From sequence record PQ821641: a DNA stretch of 40,091 nucleotides; one strand, 5' to 3'. Under the pieces are notes generated by a model. That model worked only from the letters and a program-made list of their open reading frames with translations. It searched no databases and was not told the DNA's origin. A program made the position numbers and the translations under genes. Positions 976 to 23,806 of the stretch are shown here, piece after piece. Source of the DNA: Escherichia phage SD6. Every line of letters starts with the position of its first letter. Position 1 is the first letter of the stretch.

Positions 976-1176
976 ATGGACACTATGAAACACTTAAGCA
1001 CAATCACTAATCACTATGAAATATTCGTGGACACTAAAGGTTATGCGTGGATTCAGCTTAAAGAGATGAGAGGAGCGCGTCACCGTATGGTAGTGCGCAA
1101 GGTCTCAAGCAAGCCGTTTAGCAACTACAGCGTAGATACTGTGCGTATAGACAACGAGATCTACCTGATAGACTAA
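976..1176 (+). CDS. Hypothetical early protein (66 aa)
   Basis: First ORF after the host promoters, + strand; no recognisable family; not acidic like Ocr. Confidence 0.5.
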   Translation: MDTMKHLSTITNHYEIFVDTKGYAWIQLKEMRGARHRMVVRKVSSKPFSNYSVDTVRIDNEIYLID

Positions 1177-1264
1177 CAGATAACCGTGAGTCCTACAGCG
1201 AGCGCCTCAGCTCCTTATTTCGCTAACTGAAAGTGATTAACTACAGGTCGTTAACTAATAGCGG

Positions 1265-1285
1265 CCTGACTGATAGTCACTAACT
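1265..1285 (+). repeat. 21-bp element CCTGACTGATAGTCACTAACT, copy 2, followed by TATAGG
   Basis: Exact repeat of 949-969; here it runs into ACTATAGGA, a partial phage-promoter core. Confidence 0.5.
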
Positions 1286-1299
1286 ATAGGATAAACAAG

Positions 1300-1488
1300 A
1301 TGGCATACCGTAAGATGACCAAAGCAGAAGTGATAGCCGAAGTTCTTGAAACTTTCCGCGAGTTCCCTGAGACTTTCAGAGGCGATGACATAGCAAAACA
1401 GCAGTATTGGAATGACTACACAGACAGTCTCTGCAAGTCTGGCATGATTTCCAAACACCAGTATAACACTTGGTCAAACCCATTCTAA
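1300..1488 (+). CDS. Hypothetical early protein (62 aa)
   Basis: ATG with AGGA about 9 nt upstream; early-region position. Confidence 0.55.
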   Translation: MAYRKMTKAEVIAEVLETFREFPETFRGDDIAKQQYWNDYTDSLCKSGMISKHQYNTWSNPF

Positions 1489-1504
1489 CGTAAGGAATAT
1501 AACC

Positions 1505-2029
1505 ATGAAACTGATAGGCAAAGGCGCGTTCACTAAGTGCTACCTGAAGGATTGCGGGAAGCGTGTTCTTCTGGTCTCTTCTGACCCGATAAAGGAGTGT
1601 ATGGCGTGGGGATGGTTCCCTGAGTCTCCACTGTTCCCTGAAGTCAAAATGATTGAGGTAGGCACGTATGAGATGGACTACATGCCACCAACGCGAGGTC
1701 TCAAGGCGCATTTAGATGATGACCAATGGCAGCTCTATCAGGTGCTGCGTGATTGCTTCTCACGGTCTCCGGTATTCTCTCGACCTGCTGAATTGTATCA
1801 CAAGTGGTACGAGATATTCCAAGATGCACACGACAGGTCTGCGTCTGAGACTGTGCGGGAGGGCCTGATGGATGTGCTGATGGCTCTGGATGCTTGCGCT
1901 AACTTCGGGCCAGACATTCAGTTTGAGATAAGCCCACGAAATGTACGGGCTGTGAATGGTAAGCTGATACTAGTGGATTGTTTTTTCCTTATGTCCAAAC
2001 TGCAAGAGGTGAGGTCATCAAGATGGTAA
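1505..2029 (+). CDS. Putative protein kinase-like early protein (short gp0.7-like)
   Basis: 174 aa; N-terminal IGKGAFTKCY resembles a Gly-rich loop and C-terminal ISPRNV...LILVDCFF resembles catalytic-loop/DFG-like motifs; position matches T7 gene 0.7; function tentative. Confidence 0.55.
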   Translation: MKLIGKGAFTKCYLKDCGKRVLLVSSDPIKECMAWGWFPESPLFPEVKMIEVGTYEMDYMPPTRGLKAHLDDDQWQLYQVLRDCFSRSPVFSRPAELYHKWYEIFQDAHDRSASETVREGLMDVLMALDACANFGPDIQFEISPRNVRAVNGKLILVDCFFLMSKLQEVRSSRW

Positions 2030-2199
2030 CTTATGGTCTCTGCCAGCACCACGTCGCCAACGCCCGGCTTATGGTCAGGACCGGGCAGTTAAACCATGAT
2101 GCGACTATGCGTCTCCTGAAAGCGGTCTACGAGGGCCGCAAGCTCATACACGACGCTTACACGCTGAGGACAGGTAAACATGTACCAGATAACTTATAG
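2023..2199 (+). CDS. Hypothetical small early protein (58 aa)
   Basis: ATG at 2023 overlaps the upstream stop (ATGGTAA), suggesting translational coupling; the ORF track begins this frame at a TTG at 1978. Confidence 0.4.
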   Translation: MVTYGLCQHHVANARLMVRTGQLNHDATMRLLKAVYEGRKLIHDAYTLRTGKHVPDNL

Positions 2200-2305
2200 C
2201 AGTGAACAGGCGTTCTACGAGGGATGCTACGAGATGATGAAGCGCGGGGCTTGCTATGTGGCTAATCACCATAGCCTGACCATAACGCTGACAGGTGGAT
2301 ACTGA
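2180..2305 (+). CDS. Hypothetical small early protein (41 aa)
   Basis: ATG with GAGGA about 9 nt upstream; below the ORF-track size cut-off; weak call. Confidence 0.25.
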   Translation: MYQITYSSEQAFYEGCYEMMKRGACYVANHHSLTITLTGGY

Positions 2306-2376
2306 GCGATAGACGAGAGGTCATCTAACTGATAGGTGGCCTCAAAGATTATCACTTAAATTGATAGGAGTTAACT

Positions 2377-2481
2377 ATGAGCACTGCAATCATCTGGACT
2401 ATCTCAGGCTTCGTAGCGTGGGGAATGTTTACTCTAGTAGGCAAACTACCAGTACTTACTCAACTGTTATGGGGTTTATGA
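2377..2481 (+). CDS. Hypothetical small hydrophobic peptide (34 aa)
   Basis: AGGAG 6-7 nt upstream of the ATG; hydrophobic sequence MSTAIIWTISGFVAWGMFTLVG...; its stop overlaps the next start. Confidence 0.35.
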   Translation: MSTAIIWTISGFVAWGMFTLVGKLPVLTQLLWGL

Positions 2482-2681
2482 CTATGGATATCGCACTATT
2501 GATAGCCATAGGCTATGGACTTATAGTCTACGTGCTGGTGAGAGACATCAACAAAGCGCGTAAAGTCTACAAATTCAACTATGTACGTCTGGGTCGCTGG
2601 ACTGTGCGCCAACCTAACGGACAATTCGTGCGCAACTTAGCGAACGTCTGGGATATAGCAACACTTGGGAGCAAACTATAA
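2478..2681 (+). CDS. Hypothetical small membrane protein (67 aa)
   Basis: ATGA overlap with the upstream ORF; predicted transmembrane segment IALLIAIGYGLIVYVLV. Confidence 0.45.
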   Translation: MTMDIALLIAIGYGLIVYVLVRDINKARKVYKFNYVRLGRWTVRQPNGQFVRNLANVWDIATLGSKL

Positions 2682-3007
2682 TGAACAAGTCATACGGGAT
2701 CAATCTGGTACACTCTATGGACGCAGACATGCAAATGCTAAGCCTACTGGCTACCGGGTATCGTCACGGAACGTCAAGTCACTCCGCACGTCAACAGCAG
2801 GAGAGGGACCGGGTACTGCAAGCAAGACTCCGGGCTGAGGGACATAAGTCCGAACTGATGTGTCTGGCGTATGGTGGACGACCAATCGCCGACGATGGTA
2901 AACTTCTGGTCTCAGGCTGGAAGGCGATAGACCAACGGTCAACCCTCAAGCACACGACTCACGGTGACTTCAGTCATCTTCACGCTAACCCACTGATATG
3001 CAAGTAA
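2681..3007 (+). CDS. Hypothetical early protein (108 aa)
   Basis: TAATG overlap with the upstream ORF; no recognisable family. Confidence 0.5.
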   Translation: MNKSYGINLVHSMDADMQMLSLLATGYRHGTSSHSARQQQERDRVLQARLRAEGHKSELMCLAYGGRPIADDGKLLVSGWKAIDQRSTLKHTTHGDFSHLHANPLICK

Positions 3008-8943: not shown

Positions 8944-9642
8944 ATGGCTAAAGAGCAACTGAAGACTTTCACCACTCCGGTAGCTGGTATCGTTGAGCCT
9001 TACGCATGGCTGAACAAAGCAGACACCAAGTTCAACGAGCGTGGTGAACACAAAGTCAACCTGACGTTCGACCTGAGCAACCCGAAGGTCCGTAAGATGA
9101 TTGATGTCTTACAGAAGATTCACGACGATGCGTATGCGAAAGCACTCGCAGACCACGAGAAGAACCCACCTCAGGTTCAGCGTGGCAAGAAGCCTATTGA
9201 ACCACGAGAAGGCGACATGCCGTGGATTGAGAATGGTGACGGTACTGTTACCCTGAAGTTTAAATGCTTCGCGTCTTACCTGAAGGATGGTAAGTCAGAG
9301 CCTATCGTATTACGGTTCTACGACACCGATGCTAAGTTAATCCGTGACGTCCCGAATATTGGCGCTGGCTCCAAACTGAAGGTCAAGTTTAAAGTCCTGC
9401 CGTTCAAGTGGAACGCTGCGACTGGTGCAAGCGTTAAGCTCCAGCTTGAGTCCTGCCTTCTGGTAGAACTGAAGGAGTGGAAAGGTGATGGTGCTGGTGG
9501 CGATGGTGGCTGGGGTGATGATGAAGACCTAGGCACTGGCTACAAAGCGTCAACCGATGGCGACTTCGGGTCTGATGACTTTGGTGACGATGGTTCAGAA
9601 GGTGGTGACGACTCCAACTCTGGTGGCGATTACGACTTCTAA
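8944..9642 (+). CDS. Single-stranded DNA-binding protein (gene 2.5)
   Basis: 232 aa; homologous to T7 gp2.5 along its length (GKKP...EGDMPW, VKLQLES) with an acidic C-terminal tail ending in F. Confidence 0.95.
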   Translation: MAKEQLKTFTTPVAGIVEPYAWLNKADTKFNERGEHKVNLTFDLSNPKVRKMIDVLQKIHDDAYAKALADHEKNPPQVQRGKKPIEPREGDMPWIENGDGTVTLKFKCFASYLKDGKSEPIVLRFYDTDAKLIRDVPNIGAGSKLKVKFKVLPFKWNAATGASVKLQLESCLLVELKEWKGDGAGGDGGWGDDEDLGTGYKASTDGDFGSDDFGDDGSEGGDDSNSGGDYDF

Positions 9643-11394: not shown

Positions 11395-11610
11395 ATGATT
11401 AAACTCATCGAATTTCTTGGTCGTCTGGTGGTGCGTGGCTATCGTCGTGCTGCGGTACTGGAACGAAAGGTAGAAAAGAAGACTGCTGACGGTGCGGCTG
11501 ATGCTGCTGCTCTGGCTGACAAGTTGGCCATCGCGTCACTGGAAGCTGGCATGAAGGCACGTCAAGCTGACACCAAAGCTGACCAGTTGGCTCAGTTCTT
11601 CAAAGACTAA
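11395..11610 (+). CDS. Hypothetical protein (71 aa)
   Basis: AAGGAG upstream of the ATG; Ala-rich, probably helical; lies between the lysozyme and primase genes. Confidence 0.6.
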   Translation: MIKLIEFLGRLVVRGYRRAAVLERKVEKKTADGAADAAALADKLAIASLEAGMKARQADTKADQLAQFFKD

Positions 11611-11626
11611 ACTATCACCTTAGGGA
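11607..11626 (+). promoter_or_regulatory. Phage promoter variant (ACCTTAGGG core) upstream of gene 4
   Basis: CTAAACTATCACCTTAGGGA differs from consensus at two core positions. Confidence 0.45.
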
Positions 11627-11675: not shown

Positions 11676-13379
<1,704 letters not shown>

Positions 13380-13648: not shown

Positions 13649-15820
13649 ATGTTTGACCTTAAGAGTATCTGGGGTTCTGACATCGAGACCAACGGTCTCC
13701 TTGATACAGTCTCCCAGTTTCACTGTGGGGTCCTGATTAACGCCGAGTCGAATGAGACCCTTAAGTATGGGGTAGCTCCGATGGTCGGTATCGTCGGCGG
13801 CTTCAAAGAGTATGTGCAGAAGGTGGAAGAGATTGCCGCATCACCTGATGGTATGCTGGTATTCCACAACGGTATCAACTATGACGTCCCGGCTATTGAC
13901 AAGCTGAAGCGTCTGTACTTTGGGAAACGATTTAACTTCCCGAAACACAAGATGATTGATACCTTGGTGCTGGGCCGCTTGATGTATCCCAACATTAAGT
14001 TCTCAGACATGGGTGCGGTGAAAGCTGGTCGTCTACCACCTAAGATGATGGGACGCCAGTCTCTTGAGGCTTGGGGCTATCGTCTAGGTGAGATGAAGGG
14101 TGAATACAAACACGATTACGTTGCCAAGTGCAAGGCCGAAGGTATCGAATATAAGTCTGGGGACGAATGGTTGTTCCCCTCTCAAGAGATGCTGGACTAT
14201 AACGTTCAAGACGTTGTGGTCACACTGGCGTTGTTCAAGAAGTTCCTGACTGACAAGTATTACTTCCAGTCTGAACAGTCCGCTTTCGAACAGATTTATG
14301 CGTTGCGCCTGGAACATGATGCTGCGTGGACCTGTGCGAAGATGGAGCGTAACGGCTATCCGATGAACACCGAGATGGTCGAAGGCTTATATCGTGAACT
14401 TACTGTCAAACGTGCGGAGTTGCTGGACAAGCTGCGCTCGACTTTCGGTAGCTGGTATGCACCAAAGGGAGGCAAGGAGTTCTTCAGGCATCCACGGACA
14501 GGTAAGGACCTTCCGAAGTATCCGAGAGTCGTGTATCCCAAGGTCGGTGGCATCTTTAAGAAGCCTAAGAACAAAGCTCAACGCTTAGGTCTTGAACCTT
14601 GTGAACTCGATACGCGAGACACGATGGAGGGAGCACCGTTCACGCCAATCACTTACGTTGAGTTTAATCCGGGAAGCGGAGATCACTTAGCGAAAGTCCT
14701 GATGGAGCGTGGGTGGGAGCCTGTGGACTTCACTGACACCGGGAAACCTGTAGTCGATGACGAGACGCTAGAACACGTTAAGTTACCAGACGCAGAGGCT
14801 CAGGCTTGCGTAGAGCTGGTCCGTGAGTATCTGGTAGTCCAGAAGCGCATCGGTCAGGCGGCTGAAGGTAAGAACGCATGGTTGAAACTTGTAGGTCCAG
14901 ACGGACGTATGCACGGTTCAATCAACCCATGCGGGGCAGTAACCGGACGTGCTACTCACAGTTCACCAAACATGGCTCAGGTCCCGGCTAACGGTGCTCC
15001 ATATGGTGAGACTTGCCGTGGTGCTTTCGGTGCAGCGTGGAACAAGAAGGATGGTAAGCCAGACCCTTGGATTCAAGTAGGTGTGGATGCCTCAGGTCTT
15101 GAGCTTCGTTGTCTGGGGAACCGAGCGGCTCCGTTTGATGGTGGTGCATATGCGAAGACTGTGGTCGAAGGTGACATCCACTGGGCCAACGCAGTCAACG
15201 CTGGGTTAGCACCTAACGTCCCACGCGATAAGTCGAACCACGACCATGAGGCTTTCCGTAACAACGCTAAGACGTTCATCTATGCGTTCCTGTACGGTGC
15301 AGGGGCCGCTAAGATTGGACTGATAGTCGGTGGCGGTAAGAAGGAAGGTTCAGCTCTCATGAAGAAATTCATTGAGGGTACACCAGCCATCAAAGACCTC
15401 AGGGAAGCTGTGAGTAATACGTTAATCTCAGACTCTAAGTGGGTGGACGGTGAGAACATCGTCAAGTGGAAACGCCGTTGGTTGCGTGGACTTGATGGTC
15501 GCCGTATCCACATCCGGTCGCCACACTCAGCACTTAACGCATTACTTCAAGGTGATGGTGCGGTAGTCTGTAAGCACTGGATGGTGCTGACGGAGAAGAA
15601 ACTTGAGGAAGCTGGCTACGGTAACGGCTGGGATGGTGACTTTGCGTTAATGGCTTGGATTCACGACGAATTACAGATTGCGTGTCGTACTCAGAAGATA
15701 GCCGAAGATGTCGTCCGTATTGCACAAGAGGCAATGCGCGAGGTAGGGCGCTTCTATAACTTCAAGTGTGAGCTTGATACGGAGGGTAAGATTGGACCAA
15801 CGTGGAAAGAATGTCACTGA
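13649..15820 (+). CDS. DNA polymerase (gene 5, family A)
   Basis: Collinear with T7 gp5 (SDIETN exonuclease motif, RQSLEAWGYRLGEMKGEYK, NAKTFIYAFLYGAG, WIHDE); ATG 13649 with GGAGG upstream is preferred over the ORF-track start at 13613. Confidence 0.97.
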   Translation: MFDLKSIWGSDIETNGLLDTVSQFHCGVLINAESNETLKYGVAPMVGIVGGFKEYVQKVEEIAASPDGMLVFHNGINYDVPAIDKLKRLYFGKRFNFPKHKMIDTLVLGRLMYPNIKFSDMGAVKAGRLPPKMMGRQSLEAWGYRLGEMKGEYKHDYVAKCKAEGIEYKSGDEWLFPSQEMLDYNVQDVVVTLALFKKFLTDKYYFQSEQSAFEQIYALRLEHDAAWTCAKMERNGYPMNTEMVEGLYRELTVKRAELLDKLRSTFGSWYAPKGGKEFFRHPRTGKDLPKYPRVVYPKVGGIFKKPKNKAQRLGLEPCELDTRDTMEGAPFTPITYVEFNPGSGDHLAKVLMERGWEPVDFTDTGKPVVDDETLEHVKLPDAEAQACVELVREYLVVQKRIGQAAEGKNAWLKLVGPDGRMHGSINPCGAVTGRATHSSPNMAQVPANGAPYGETCRGAFGAAWNKKDGKPDPWIQVGVDASGLELRCLGNRAAPFDGGAYAKTVVEGDIHWANAVNAGLAPNVPRDKSNHDHEAFRNNAKTFIYAFLYGAGAAKIGLIVGGGKKEGSALMKKFIEGTPAIKDLREAVSNTLISDSKWVDGENIVKWKRRWLRGLDGRRIHIRSPHSALNALLQGDGAVVCKHWMVLTEKKLEEAGYGNGWDGDFALMAWIHDELQIACRTQKIAEDVVRIAQEAMREVGRFYNFKCELDTEGKIGPTWKECH

Positions 15821-15851
15821 CCATCGAACCAAGACCTTGCGTTTCCACACA

Positions 15852-16145
15852 ATGCCTACTGGATGTATCGTCTGCGTGTCCCACAAGAGGAACCAAGATG
15901 GATACTTCCGGTATTCTATGGGAAGCTACAGGAAGGGCAACAAGTTCGCCTTCATGTTTCACAGATGGGTGTGGGAACAGAAGCGTGGGCCTACACCAGA
16001 TGGCTATGAGATAGACCATTTGTGTTTGAATCGTGGGTGCTGTAACGTAGAGCACCTACAGTGTATTCCAAAGCGTGAGCACGTCATCAAGACGAACCGT
16101 GAGCGCAAACTTATTAAGAAGGAGAAAGATAATGGCTATTACTAA
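15852..16145 (+). CDS. HNH homing endonuclease
   Basis: 97 aa from ATG 15852; classic motif GYEIDHLCLNRGCCNVEHLQCIPKREH; directly follows the polymerase gene. Confidence 0.8.
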   Translation: MPTGCIVCVSHKRNQDGYFRYSMGSYRKGNKFAFMFHRWVWEQKRGPTPDGYEIDHLCLNRGCCNVEHLQCIPKREHVIKTNRERKLIKKEKDNGYY

Positions 16146-16428
16146 ACGTTTTAAAGTGTCATTCGAAATGACCGTAAAGGTTGACTCTGAGACTGAAGAT
16201 ATGCTTAAGGAACGCATCTTGGATTTGGCTCGCAGCGTTTGTGATGGTGAGTCCATAAATGCACAGGACAAAGAGTTACTCGTACAGGCCCTTACTCATG
16301 GTGCCGATGGTGCTGTTGCCTTTACTGTTAAGCATGGCGTTCGTAATATAATCCGTGAGATAGGCATTGAGCACCACGGAGAGGGAATTAAGTTTGCACC
16401 AGCAACTATTCGTGAGGTCAAGCAATGA
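16132..16428 (+). CDS. gp5.5-like protein
   Basis: 98 aa; ATG 16132 with AAGGAG upstream; N terminus MAITKRFKVSFEM; assigned by synteny and a remembered resemblance to T7 gp5.5. Confidence 0.6.
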   Translation: MAITKRFKVSFEMTVKVDSETEDMLKERILDLARSVCDGESINAQDKELLVQALTHGADGAVAFTVKHGVRNIIREIGIEHHGEGIKFAPATIREVKQ

Positions 16429-16634
16429 GTGAATACTTACGGGTCCTAGCGGCACTTAAGTCCTGCCCGAAGACCTTTCAGTCCAACTATGTGCGCAACA
16501 ACGCAGCACTAGTGGCTGAGGCTGCGAGTCGTGGACATCTAAGCTGCCTGTCTATGGATGGGCGTAACAACGGTGCATGGGAGATTACCGCTGCGGGCAC
16601 CAAGTTCCTGAATCAACATGGAGGCTGCCTATGA
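16425..16634 (+). CDS. gp5.7-like protein
   Basis: 69 aa; LKSCPKTFQSNYVRNNAALVAEAASRGH closely resembles T7 gp5.7 as remembered. Confidence 0.7.
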   Translation: MSEYLRVLAALKSCPKTFQSNYVRNNAALVAEAASRGHLSCLSMDGRNNGAWEITAAGTKFLNQHGGCL

Positions 16635-17080
16635 AGATACCTGAAAGTCTGAAAGAGCTGGTCCTTGACATGGGTGAGTGCGAGACGGAGCACAGAAAGT
16701 ACGATGAGTTCTACGCATCTTGGTCATACACCTTGACCGAGAAGGACGTTGAGGCATACGCCGAGTCTCCCTCTGATGCCTATGAGTGGCGTCCGTTCAT
16801 CGGGCTGACCATCGTAGCCAGTGGTATGTGGAGTGACAGCTGCGGTTCAGAGGTAAATGACTGGGTCGTATATCGCCAGGTTGAGAAGGAGACCGAAATA
16901 TCTTCCAACTTCTGGAGCTTGATGTCACACCTCAACTCAGAGGATAATGACATGGCCCATGAGTTCGCCAACAAATGGCTGAAGCCTGGGGTAACTCTGG
17001 AACGTATTGAGGAGCCGAAAGTTCCCTTGATGCCAGCTACGGTCGCTATGGCTACGGGAGGTCTAGACGATGGGTTCTGA
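16631..17080 (+). CDS. Hypothetical acidic protein (149 aa) at the gene 5.9 position
   Basis: ATG overlaps the gp5.7 stop; about 29 Asp+Glu versus 12 Lys+Arg (hand count); no recognisable family. Confidence 0.6.
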   Translation: MKIPESLKELVLDMGECETEHRKYDEFYASWSYTLTEKDVEAYAESPSDAYEWRPFIGLTIVASGMWSDSCGSEVNDWVVYRQVEKETEISSNFWSLMSHLNSEDNDMAHEFANKWLKPGVTLERIEEPKVPLMPATVAMATGGLDDGF

Positions 17081-17939
17081 GAAGAAGATAGCTCTGGTGC
17101 TGGATGGTGACTATCTGGTCTTCTCCTCTATGGCTGCTGCCGAGGACGAGACAGACTGGGGTGATGACATCTGGACACTTATCTGCGACCACAAGAAGGC
17201 TCGTCGTATCCTTGAGAACACCATCGCTGAAATCGTTAAGAAGCGCAAGGCGTGGAAAGACGCTAAGATTGTGATGTGCTTCACCGACGAGTACAACTGG
17301 CGTAAGGACGTCCTACCTACCTATAAGGCCAACCGTAAAGGTTCTCGCAAGCCTGTAGGTTACAAGAAGTTCGTAGCCGAAGTGATGGCTGACCCACGGT
17401 TCAACAGCTTCCTGCGTCCTACGCTTGAGGGCGATGACTGCATGGGTATCATTGGTACTCGACCTCAGATTGTTGGGTGCGACCATGCGGTGCTGGTGTC
17501 CTGTGATAAGGACTTCAAGACCATCCCGAACTGTGAGTTCTTCTGGTTGACAACTGGTGAAATCCTGAGTCATACGACTGCCGAGGCAGACTACTGGCAC
17601 ATGGAGCAGACCATCAAGGGTGACTCTACAGATGGCTACGGTGGCATTCCTGGGATGGGTGAGGATACCACTCGTGCGTTCCTTGATGAGCCGTACTACT
17701 TCGTGCAGGAGAGCCGTGAGCTTAAGACTGGTAAGAACAAAGGCCAGATTAAGACTGAGTGGAAGAAGTATCCTAAGCGTGAAGACATGACGCTTTGGGA
17801 CTGTATGGTGACTCTGGCTGCTAAAGCTGGGATGACCGAGGAGGAACTTCTGGTCCAAGCTCAGGTAGCTCGTATTTGCCGAGCCTCCGACTACGACCCT
17901 AAGTCCAAGGAGGTCATCCTATGGACACCATCCATGTAA
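17070..17939 (+). CDS. 5'-3' exonuclease (gene 6)
   Basis: 289 aa; LDGDYLVF, PTYKANRK, SCDKDFKTIPNC, TIKGDSTDGY and WDCMVTLAAKAGMTEEE as in T7 gp6. Confidence 0.95.
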   Translation: MGSEKKIALVLDGDYLVFSSMAAAEDETDWGDDIWTLICDHKKARRILENTIAEIVKKRKAWKDAKIVMCFTDEYNWRKDVLPTYKANRKGSRKPVGYKKFVAEVMADPRFNSFLRPTLEGDDCMGIIGTRPQIVGCDHAVLVSCDKDFKTIPNCEFFWLTTGEILSHTTAEADYWHMEQTIKGDSTDGYGGIPGMGEDTTRAFLDEPYYFVQESRELKTGKNKGQIKTEWKKYPKREDMTLWDCMVTLAAKAGMTEEELLVQAQVARICRASDYDPKSKEVILWTPSM

Positions 17940-18013: not shown

Positions 18014-18066
18014 ATCTAACCGATAGTCATATCCTATCAATCCAACAGTCATCCATAGGTGAAACA

Positions 18067-18088
18067 CTAAACTATCACTATAGGGACT
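18067..18088 (+). promoter_or_regulatory. Phage promoter (phi6.5-like)
   Basis: CTAAACTATCACTATAGGGACT. Confidence 0.7.
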
Positions 18089-20989: not shown

Positions 20990-21874
20990 ATGTCTCAATC
21001 AGTTTATGCCGAGTTTGGCGTTAGCTCTAATGCAATCACTGGTTCCGTTGAGGACCTGAACGAACACCAGAAGTCTATGCTTGAACAGGACGTAGCTGTT
21101 CGTGATGGCGATGACGCTATTACCTTCAAGCAAATGGAAGCCGAAAACGAAGAGGCTATCGAAGAAGACGAGAACGTCGAAGAGACTGAAGGTGAAGAAG
21201 ACCACGAGTCAGATGACGAAGAGTCTGAGACCGGTGGTGAGCAGCCGGAGTTCATCGAACTGGGTGATGCACCAAAAGAGCTTACCGAAAGTGTCACCGC
21301 TCTGGATGAAAACGAAGCTGCATTCGACGACATGGTGTCTTCTGCTGTAGAAGCTGGCAAGGTCACTGCTGATGAAATTACCGCTATCAAGGCTGAATAC
21401 GCCAAGGATGGTAAGCTGTCTGACGCATCCTACGCTAAGTTGCAGGAAGCAGGTTACACCAAGCGCTTCGTAGATTCGTTTGTCCGTGGTCAGGAAGCTC
21501 TGGCTGAACAGTATGCTGCTGGTGTGGTTCGCTACGCTGGTGGTGCTGAACAGTTTAATCGCATCCTGTCACACCTTGAGTCAACCGACCCGTCAACTCG
21601 TGAAGCACTGGAAGCTGCTATCGTTCGTAAGGACATTGCGACTACCAAGGCTCTGCTGAATCTGGCTGGCAAGACTCTTGGTAAAGCTGTAGGCGTTAAA
21701 CCTCAGCGTACCATCACCACTCAGGCCAAACCTGTGGTAGCACCTAAGGCTCCTCAGACCGAAGCATTCAGCTCTAAAGCTGACATGATTAAGGCTATGA
21801 GTGACCCGAGATACCTGCGTGACGCTAAGTACACGATGGAAGTTCGAGCTAAGGTAGCTGCATCAAGCCTGTAG
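20990..21874 (+). CDS. Capsid assembly scaffolding protein (gene 9)
   Basis: 294 aa, highly acidic and low-complexity, between the portal and capsid genes. Confidence 0.9.
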   Translation: MSQSVYAEFGVSSNAITGSVEDLNEHQKSMLEQDVAVRDGDDAITFKQMEAENEEAIEEDENVEETEGEEDHESDDEESETGGEQPEFIELGDAPKELTESVTALDENEAAFDDMVSSAVEAGKVTADEITAIKAEYAKDGKLSDASYAKLQEAGYTKRFVDSFVRGQEALAEQYAAGVVRYAGGAEQFNRILSHLESTDPSTREALEAAIVRKDIATTKALLNLAGKTLGKAVGVKPQRTITTQAKPVVAPKAPQTEAFSSKADMIKAMSDPRYLRDAKYTMEVRAKVAASSL

Positions 21875-23239: not shown

Positions 23240-23806
23240 ATGGCTCAATACATTCCACTGAATGCTAACGATGACTTAGACGCCATCAACGATATGTTAG
23301 CTGCTATCGGTGAACCAGCAGTCCTACAGCTTGACGAGGGGAACGCTGACGTATCGAACGCTCAACGTATACTGCATCGTGTCAATCGTCAGGTCCAAGC
23401 CAAAGGCTGGAACTTTAATATCAACGAAGCTGCTGTCCTGACACCTGATGTCCAAGACAATAGGATTCGATTCTTGCCGTCATACCTTCGTGTAATGACC
23501 GCTGGGGCCACCAGCTACTACAGCAACATGGGTGGATACCTGTACGACCTGTCCACTCAGTCAACCACTTTCACCGACCCTATCACGGTAGAGCTTGTGG
23601 AGATGAAGCCATTCTCCGAGATGCCTGTGGTCTTCAGGGACTACATCGTCACTAAAGCTAGCCGAGAGTTCAACGCTAAGTTCTTCGGTAGCCCAGAGTC
23701 TGAACTGTACCTTCGTGAGCAGGAAGCAGAACTCTATCAGCAGGTCATGGAATACGAGATGGATACTGGTCGCTACAACATGATGTCTGACATAGGGAGG
23801 GACTAA
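23240..23806 (+). CDS. Tail tubular protein A (gene 11)
   Basis: 188 aa; IVTKASREFNAKFFG.PE and MEYEMD.G.YNM as in T7 gp11. Confidence 0.95.
   Translation: MAQYIPLNANDDLDAINDMLAAIGEPAVLQLDEGNADVSNAQRILHRVNRQVQAKGWNFNINEAAVLTPDVQDNRIRFLPSYLRVMTAGATSYYSNMGGYLYDLSTQSTTFTDPITVELVEMKPFSEMPVVFRDYIVTKASREFNAKFFGSPESELYLREQEAELYQQVMEYEMDTGRYNMMSDIGRD

Follow-up and report, generated by a model that had tools for sequence, protein, structure and literature searches.

An acidic accessory protein encoded between genes 5.7 and 6 of Escherichia phage SD6, a tentative candidate for an inhibitor of host nucleases

Introduction

RecBCD inhibitors are encoded next to phage recombination exonucleases both in lambda, where gam lies beside bet and exo (gam-bet-exo), and in T7 (5.9-6). 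The T7 inhibitor gp5.9 is a parallel coiled-coil dimer of ~52 amino acids (aa) braced by an N-terminal β-sheet, and the retron Ec48 is activated by both gp5.9 and Gam (PMC9836394). Here, we describe the gene at the equivalent position in Escherichia phage SD6 (sequence record PQ821641), whose 40,091-nucleotide (nt) sequence is called the window below. An earlier note on this DNA had drawn attention to a strongly acidic open reading frame (ORF) between gp5.7 and the exonuclease gene, the slot in which T7 encodes gp5.9, and had suggested a divergent or expanded DNA mimic as its product. Its placement of the ORF stands: matches to PHROG and Pfam profiles confirm both neighbors, and the T7 annotation puts 5.9 between 5.7 and 6. 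The best explanation of the evidence assembled here is that the gene product, a member of the phage-only family PHROG 4382, is an accessory protein that the phage can dispense with and that evolves fast; it is predicted to consist of a compact acidic α/β domain and a flexible tail.

Results

The ORF at 16631-17080 on the plus strand, stop codon included, translates into 149 aa as reported, and an earlier hand count of roughly 29 acidic against 12 basic residues proved exact (10 D and 19 E; 8 K and 4 R). From the translation, we computed an isoelectric point (pI) of 4.35 and a net charge of about -17 at pH 7. The protein matches PHROG 4382, a family annotated as 'unknown function', over its full length (E = 2e-46; residues 1-130 on profile positions 6-129 of 130). 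A tblastn search found the family in 165 phage records. Because of this conservation and a ratio of nonsynonymous to synonymous substitution rates (dN/dS) of 0.13-0.40 among close relatives, we conclude that the 149-aa ORF is a real gene.

Approximately 55 Kayfunavirus-type genomes carry a copy at 80-91% identity. Copies from Klebsiella Przondovirus phages are ~44% identical and those of the FelixO1-like Ounavirinae (Moogle, Michonne, Mordin, SUSP2, Sf14, and others) 27-31% identical; Jarilovirus and Elunavirus were also found by tblastn to carry the gene. Homologs such as Klebsiella phage IME321 gp26, Pectobacterium phage Jarilo gp26, Citrobacter phage Moogle gp14, and Escherichia phage SUSP2 ALH47097 (27-91% identity) share with the window protein the motifs EHRKY..FY, G.WSD..G.E, and LMSHLN.EDN.MA.EF as well as conserved acidity. 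These homologs are all annotated as hypothetical, and the window protein differs from them by an extra 20-residue tail. Short forms of 100-117 aa carry a VPE..IPAH segment in place of the helical hairpin described below. Two other homologs bear implausible names: that of Klebsiella phage SH-Kp 152410 is called a 'baseplate hub assembly protein' and that of Citrobacter phage vB_CbrM_HP1 a 'tail tube protein'. Pantoea phage vB_PagP-SK1 (MN450150.1; L003) encodes a clear 125-aa family member on the plus strand at 2495-2872, and the same locus is annotated with a minus-strand hypothetical ORF (2507-2785) that is probably a mis-annotation.

The family is small: an exhaustive profile search of 1.84e9 representative proteins returned only 46 clusters, and a metagenome scan contributed just a few further loci. 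A scan of genomes from 185,579 species of bacteria and archaea (one genome per species) found no copy, and all occurrences were in phage records or phage-like contigs. The earlier statement that the protein has no recognizable catalytic motif holds, as Pfam, NCBIfam, and PADLOC gave no significant match: Pfam has no family for the protein and none that is consistent across the 33 members of our alignment, NCBIfam did not match, and the PADLOC score was only 13 bits. Searches of the PDB with the single sequence or the family profile found no sequence relatives. In the literature, we found no paper mentioning phrog_4382 or treating this gene family, and nothing on this gene in an accessory-gene screen preprint or in publications on Kayfunavirus and RecBCD. 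The family is already catalogued, solely as 'unknown function'.

The slot between genes 5.7 and 6 varies greatly in content. It holds gp5.9 in T7 and T3, a PHROG 2251-type protein in PP81, a 68-aa protein in K11 whose N-terminus resembles that of the PP81 protein, and, in IME321, the PHROG 4382 gene plus a 58-aa basic ORF, whereas K1F, K5-4, and Serratia phage KKP 3708 have no gene there. In all, the position is occupied by at least four unrelated families. In Escherichia virus LS2 (MN518894.2; L007:1965-2150), a frameshifted and internally deleted remnant lies unannotated between 5.7 and the exonuclease gene, with pieces matching residues ~19-26, 64-96, and 127-131 in different frames. A copy with at least 60% identity is present in some 55 records, compared to ~213 records with a near-identical gp5.7, or about a quarter. 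Judged from these comparisons, the 149-aa gene appears to be accessory and dispensable. It also evolves quickly: at similar synonymous divergence (dS 0.2-0.37), its dN/dS was 0.18-0.35 vs. 0.02-0.03 for gp5.7 and gp6, i.e., ~10 times that of the flanking genes.

We did not find a gp5.9 homolog in the window; the best tblastn match of T7 gp5.9 had E = 0.14 and lay elsewhere, on the minus strand. Conversely, the family hidden Markov model (HMM) scored T7 gp5.9 at -0.1 bits. When gp5.9 was searched by tblastn against 50,697 phage records, 184 of the 187 matches were at least 80% identical to the T7 protein, and no match exceeded ~52 aa. Most matching records were from Escherichia, Yersinia, and Enterobacteria phages, T7 and T3 among them, with no match in Klebsiella, Citrobacter, or Enterobacter phages. 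The 149-aa protein thus shares with gp5.9 its acidity and its location between 5.7 and 6 but neither homology nor coiled-coil architecture. We therefore reject the earlier suggestion of a divergent or expanded gp5.9, to which the protein shows no similarity by tblastn or profile and from which its predicted fold differs; a functional analogy is left standing.

An AlphaFold2 (AF2) model built from the 33-sequence family alignment had a mean predicted local distance difference test (pLDDT) score of 78, with ~90 for residues 1-80. It predicts a single α/β domain of ~128 residues with five strands and six helices, including helices at residues 5-14, 37-43, 47-56, 89-98, and 103-116 and strands at 16-23, 26-34, 59-68, 72-86, and 120-125. 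A conserved N-terminal core of one helix and two β-hairpins (residues 1-87; 16631-16891, plus strand, as for all features of this gene) is the sole part common to the short members. Within it lie strand β1 (residues 16-23, ECETEHRK, including H21-R22-K23; 16676-16699) and the tip of the second hairpin (residues 65-74, GMWSDSCGSE; 16823-16852), where G65 and G72 are invariant and W67, D69, and E74 are conserved. The core is followed by a helical hairpin (residues 89-116; 16895-16978) with the motif LMSHLNSEDNDMAHEF, which PHROG 6163 matches alone. In the 163-aa metagenomic protein P0086, a helical LMSHLN.EEN.MA.EF module lies N-terminal to a different domain (PHROG 24684), so the hairpin is a separable, shuffled module. 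The AF2 model ends in a low-confidence C-terminal tail (residues 129-149, PKVPLMPATVAMATGGLDDGF; 17015-17077).

A Foldseek search of the model against 350,542 chains gave a best E value of 0.38, and no structural relation to known mimics (Ocr, ArdA, Gam, gp5.9, Ugi, Arn, AcrIIA4, and others) was found. Fold matches in BFVD were to uncharacterized phage proteins only, among them SRT7 gp21, which is 19% identical to the 149-aa protein and occupies the same slot.

The 149-aa protein has the lowest pI among the sizeable ORFs of the window, yet it is no outlier, since other ATG-started ORFs come close (20990-21874, pI 4.41; 23240-23806, pI 4.42). Acidic residues make up 19.5% of the protein vs. 25% (13/52) of T7 gp5.9. 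The pI was 4.15-4.79 in all 11 non-redundant family members, with acidic residues kept at 15 alignment columns, among them 9, 13, 16, 20, 38, 41, 45, 46, 69, 74, 105, 111, and 129, and the alignment indicates that acidity is a trait of the family and not an accident. G65, W67, and G72 are likewise conserved across the family. Among 28 close homologs, the most variable segment comprised positions 17-20 of strand β1, directly before the conserved H21-R22-K23.

Across phage lineages, DNA- or nucleotide-metabolism genes surround the family gene in most contigs long enough to judge. In the Studiervirinae, including divergent metagenomic members (L019 and L035), it immediately precedes gene 6. A short form of 112-115 aa occurs in uncultivated ~90-kb phages sampled in several metagenomes (one of them a TARA contig), where it follows right after a PHROG 107 exonuclease gene (-8 to +10 bp). 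Adjacency to a T7-type exonuclease is thus found in two very different lineages with opposite gene orders. Elsewhere, the distance is greater: the family gene lies 0.7-1.4 kb downstream of the PHROG 107 exonuclease gene in L047, L024, and L017, where it also abuts genes for a Mre11-like phosphoesterase (L024) or a DnaQ-like exonuclease subunit (L017), and 3.6 kb separate it from the exonuclease gene in L021. The ~90-kb lineage (L028-L033, L038, and L044-L049; IMG/VR and metagenome contigs) has no near relative among the cultured phages of the collection and carries a conserved block of T7-type exonuclease, short PHROG 4382 gene, and HNH endonuclease followed by a DnaQ-like exonuclease subunit.

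In the window, the upstream neighbor of the 149-aa ORF is a gp5.7 homolog (16425-16634, plus strand; PHROG 1334, E = 7e-39; 77% identical to T7 gp5.7), and the downstream neighbor is gene 6, encoding the T7-type 5'-3' exonuclease (17070-17939, plus strand; Pfam 5_3_exonuc_N; PHROG 107, E = 5.5e-79). A gp5.5 homolog is also present in the neighborhood (Pfam Phage_T7_55, E = 2e-18). The start codon of the ORF (ATG, 16631-16633) overlaps the gp5.7 stop codon (TGA, 16632-16634) as ATGA and is preceded at a distance of 6 nt by a ribosome-binding site (RBS), GGAGG, read from the sequence at 16620-16624 on the plus strand. At the other end, the final 11 nt of the ORF overlap the beginning of gene 6, whose own RBS (GGAGG, 17057-17061) and start codon fall within the last codons of the ORF. 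Since both ends overlap those of its neighbors in this way, translational coupling of the ORF to genes 5.7 and 6 is suggested. We considered and rejected an alternative upstream ATG at 16577, which would give a 167-aa product overlapping gp5.7 by 58 nt; the homologs all begin with MKIPES.

A promoter-like element, CT(A/T)AACTATCAC(T/C)(A/G/T)TAGG(G/A)A, occurs in eleven copies in the window (at 3006, 6071, 7777, 8874, 11602, 18059, 20881, 21869, 26418, 34125, and 39660) and presumably represents a family of phage RNA polymerase promoters delimiting transcription units. The closest copy upstream of the 149-aa ORF, of the CTAAACTATCACTATAGG family, lies at 11602-11626, and the following copy downstream lies at 18059-18086 (both plus strand) and is the equivalent of phi6.5 according to the T7 and K11 annotation. 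No copy lies between 11602 and 18059, which therefore places the ORF in one unit with genes 4, 5, 5.5, 5.7, and 6, along with an HNH gene.

The region belongs to a Kayfunavirus-like (K1F group) genome: it was matched by 239 phage records, mostly at 90-95% identity, and an IMG/VR contig is 99% identical across the 149-aa ORF. Two of the records with ~91-92% identity to this enterobacterial T7-like region are labeled 'Staphylococcus phage MBBL139' and 'Enterococcus phage EFA-1', and these host labels look doubtful. The HNH endonuclease ORF of the window (15768-16145; PHROG 1872/6254) overlaps the 3' end of the DNA polymerase gene. In the closest relatives, some 20% of a query covering 16000-17300 was unaligned, namely the part before query position ~415 (~16000-16414), suggesting from sequence comparison that the HNH ORF may be a mobile insertion.

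The C-terminal tail contains a motif, PKV.PL.PAT(V/L)AMA, that is common to the window protein, Jarilo gp26, SRT7 gp21, and PP81 gp32 (17015-17077 in the window, L013:2400-2473 for PP81 gp32, and the gene ends in L002 and L009). PP81 gp32 is an unrelated, basic protein in which a PHROG 2251 domain is joined to this tail, and all proteins with the tail are encoded immediately upstream of gene 6. The tail is absent from Przondovirus, Elunavirus, FelixO1-like, and short-form members. A regulatory DNA element was considered as the cause of its conservation and rejected, because the window and PP81 sequences show synonymous differences; these argue for either peptide-level conservation or a recombination flank. 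The 149-aa protein ends in GGLDDGF, and the window's gp2.5 (8944-9642) and gp4 (11679-13379) end in GGDYDF and WEDQDF, respectively, acidic and with a terminal Phe as in T7. We rejected LDDGF as a docking tip of the kind found in single-stranded DNA-binding protein (SSB) or gp2.5, as its terminal Phe is not conserved and its codons are constrained by the RBS and start codon of gene 6.

Discussion

We tentatively propose that the 149-aa protein is a decoy or inhibitor of a host nuclease with RecBCD as the leading candidate target, a role that we consider possible rather than probable. Inhibition fits better than an enzymatic or structural role because the protein is small, acidic, dispensable, fast-evolving, and confined to phages, bears no enzyme signature, and is encoded in a replication and recombination unit. 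The protein would act stoichiometrically as a protein decoy or inhibitor, most likely not as an enzyme, and its target would be a host DNA-end-processing or defense nuclease, bound and blocked at the time when phage DNA replication and recombination begin. RecBCD would be the leading candidate because its inhibitors are recurrently paired with phage exonucleases, as in lambda and T7, and the protein would then be analogous in function, though not homologous, to T7 gp5.9 or lambda Gam. The adjacency of the family gene to exonuclease genes in unrelated phages and the lack of a recognizable gp5.9 homolog in the window also speak for this reading. High negative charge conserved across homologs, as seen here, is one trait of the DNA-mimic class, another being surface carboxylates that follow the pattern of a DNA phosphate backbone. 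A DNA mimic directed at RecBCD is a plausible and reasonable hypothesis, not a result.

Several observations weigh against this interpretation. Foldseek found no structural resemblance between the AF2 model and the solved DNA mimics and RecBCD inhibitors in the PDB, and the density of acidic charge is below that of gp5.9. The best-conserved residues include aromatic and basic residues besides acidic ones, and a basic cluster (K19, H21, R22, and K23) is conserved throughout the family. Many relatives have no gene at all in the slot, and since close relatives are among them, the function is not required. Furthermore, the family gene of the Ounavirinae lies between nrdD and nrdG with no exonuclease nearby, and in L020 it precedes the gene for the α subunit of ribonucleotide reductase (RNR).

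The exonuclease linkage can also be read in another way, with the 149-aa protein serving the phage 5'-3' exonuclease or the replisome as accessory subunit or regulator; its acidic domain or tail would dock on gp6 or DNA polymerase. T7 gp2.5 and gp4 dock on T7 DNA polymerase through acidic, Phe-terminated tails, and the ending of the ORF (LDDGF) is reminiscent of those of gp2.5 (DYDF) and gp4 (DQDF) in the window, but the terminal Phe is replaced by Cys in several homologs, and these last codons also have to accommodate the RBS and start codon of gene 6. A role beside the exonuclease would account for the overlapping start and stop codons, the adjacency to PHROG 107 exonucleases in two unrelated lineages with opposite orders, the DnaQ-like (L017) and Mre11-like (L024) neighbors, and the recurrence of the PATVAMA tail at the C-terminus of the unrelated PP81 gp32, which also precedes gene 6. 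Against this stand the lack of the tail in Przondovirus, Elunavirus, FelixO1-like, and short-form members and the lack of a nearby exonuclease in FelixO1-like phages. Many close relatives with a ~98% identical gp6 lack the gene or keep a decayed copy, and the ~10-fold faster evolution of the gene relative to gp6 is unexpected for an obligate partner. We regard such a partnership as unlikely. A somewhat slimmer chance attaches to the binding of a small anionic ligand, as by a 'sponge' for a nucleotide or immune second messenger, or to the inhibition of a nucleotide-directed host defense or enzyme, through a pocket formed by the His-Arg-Lys and Trp-Asp-Glu hairpin tips. The most conserved polar residues (H21, R22, K23, W67, D69, and E74) do lie at the tips of two β-hairpins that, from the predicted strand topology, are probably at the same end of the sheet, but the proximity of the two groups in space is only putative. 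Neighbors such as nrdD/nrdG, RNR α, and ThyX with RNR fit a ligand of this kind, as does a small, accessory, phage-only family, but this genomic context may merely reflect residence in a replication module.

Two further explanations start from known acidic proteins. A preprint lists Ocr in Kayfunavirus phages (PMC11370490). In the window, the early ORFs (976-3007) match only PHROGs of unknown function and none is Ocr-like, so that the acidic 149-aa protein might be thought to make up for a missing ocr gene as an anti-restriction DNA mimic. T7 genome entry is coupled to transcription, and Ocr has to be made before any other protein. The 149-aa gene, at 16.6 kb, belongs to the class II unit between the promoters at 11602 and 18059, and expression at that stage would come too late to protect entering DNA, which makes an Ocr-like role very unlikely. 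The remaining alternative, a true but highly diverged or expanded gp5.9 homolog, has the shared slot and acidity in its favor and is effectively refuted: tblastn and profile searches found no similarity, the predicted architecture differs, the known gp5.9 matches are nearly all (184/187) at least 80% identical to the T7 protein and never longer than ~52 aa, and the slot is held by at least four unrelated families.

Should the 149-aa protein turn out to block RecBCD or another nuclease of the host, the few natural inhibitors known for this immunity hub would be joined by one with a new fold, phage counter-defense would gain a new structural variant, and there would be an explanation of how T7 relatives without gp5.9 protect linear DNA. 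PHROG 4382 would then serve as an annotation marker for ~165 phage genomes, including those of therapy phages of Klebsiella, Salmonella, and E. coli K1, and would predict which phages trigger systems that guard RecBCD, such as the retron Ec48. A broader and doubtful possibility is that PHROG 4382 constitutes a new structural class of exonuclease-linked counter-defense, an acidic α/β decoy unrelated to Gam, gp5.9, or Abc2 that would disable RecBCD or another host DNA-end or defense nuclease; its cassettes would be exchanged among T7-like, FelixO1-like, and uncultivated ~90-kb phages, and the hypervariable part of β1 beside H-R-K would form an interface coevolving with the host. If its role should instead be to assist the exonuclease or to bind a ligand, the conserved linkage to exonuclease genes would still indicate a part of phage DNA metabolism that has gone unstudied. 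At this stage, the 149-aa gene is a well-delimited, experimentally tractable candidate with suggestive comparative evidence, not a discovery.

Among described systems, T7 gp5.9, a DNA mimic that inhibits RecBCD and MukBEF, is the closest in setting; it attaches to the RecB arm and so keeps RecBCD from binding DNA. The two proteins differ in size and pI (52 aa and 4.08 for gp5.9; 149 aa and 4.35 for the window protein), have no sequence similarity, and contrast a parallel coiled-coil dimer (PMC9836394) with a predicted globular α/β domain. They are alike in being acidic and non-essential and in being encoded in the same 5.7-6 slot beside the exonuclease gene. Globular α/β architecture does occur among DNA mimics, as in Ugi, the inhibitor of uracil-DNA glycosylase. 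To lambda Gam and other RecBCD inhibitors, the window protein is related neither in fold nor in sequence, but it shares with the Gam type the character of a small acidic phage protein whose gene lies beside that of an exonuclease.
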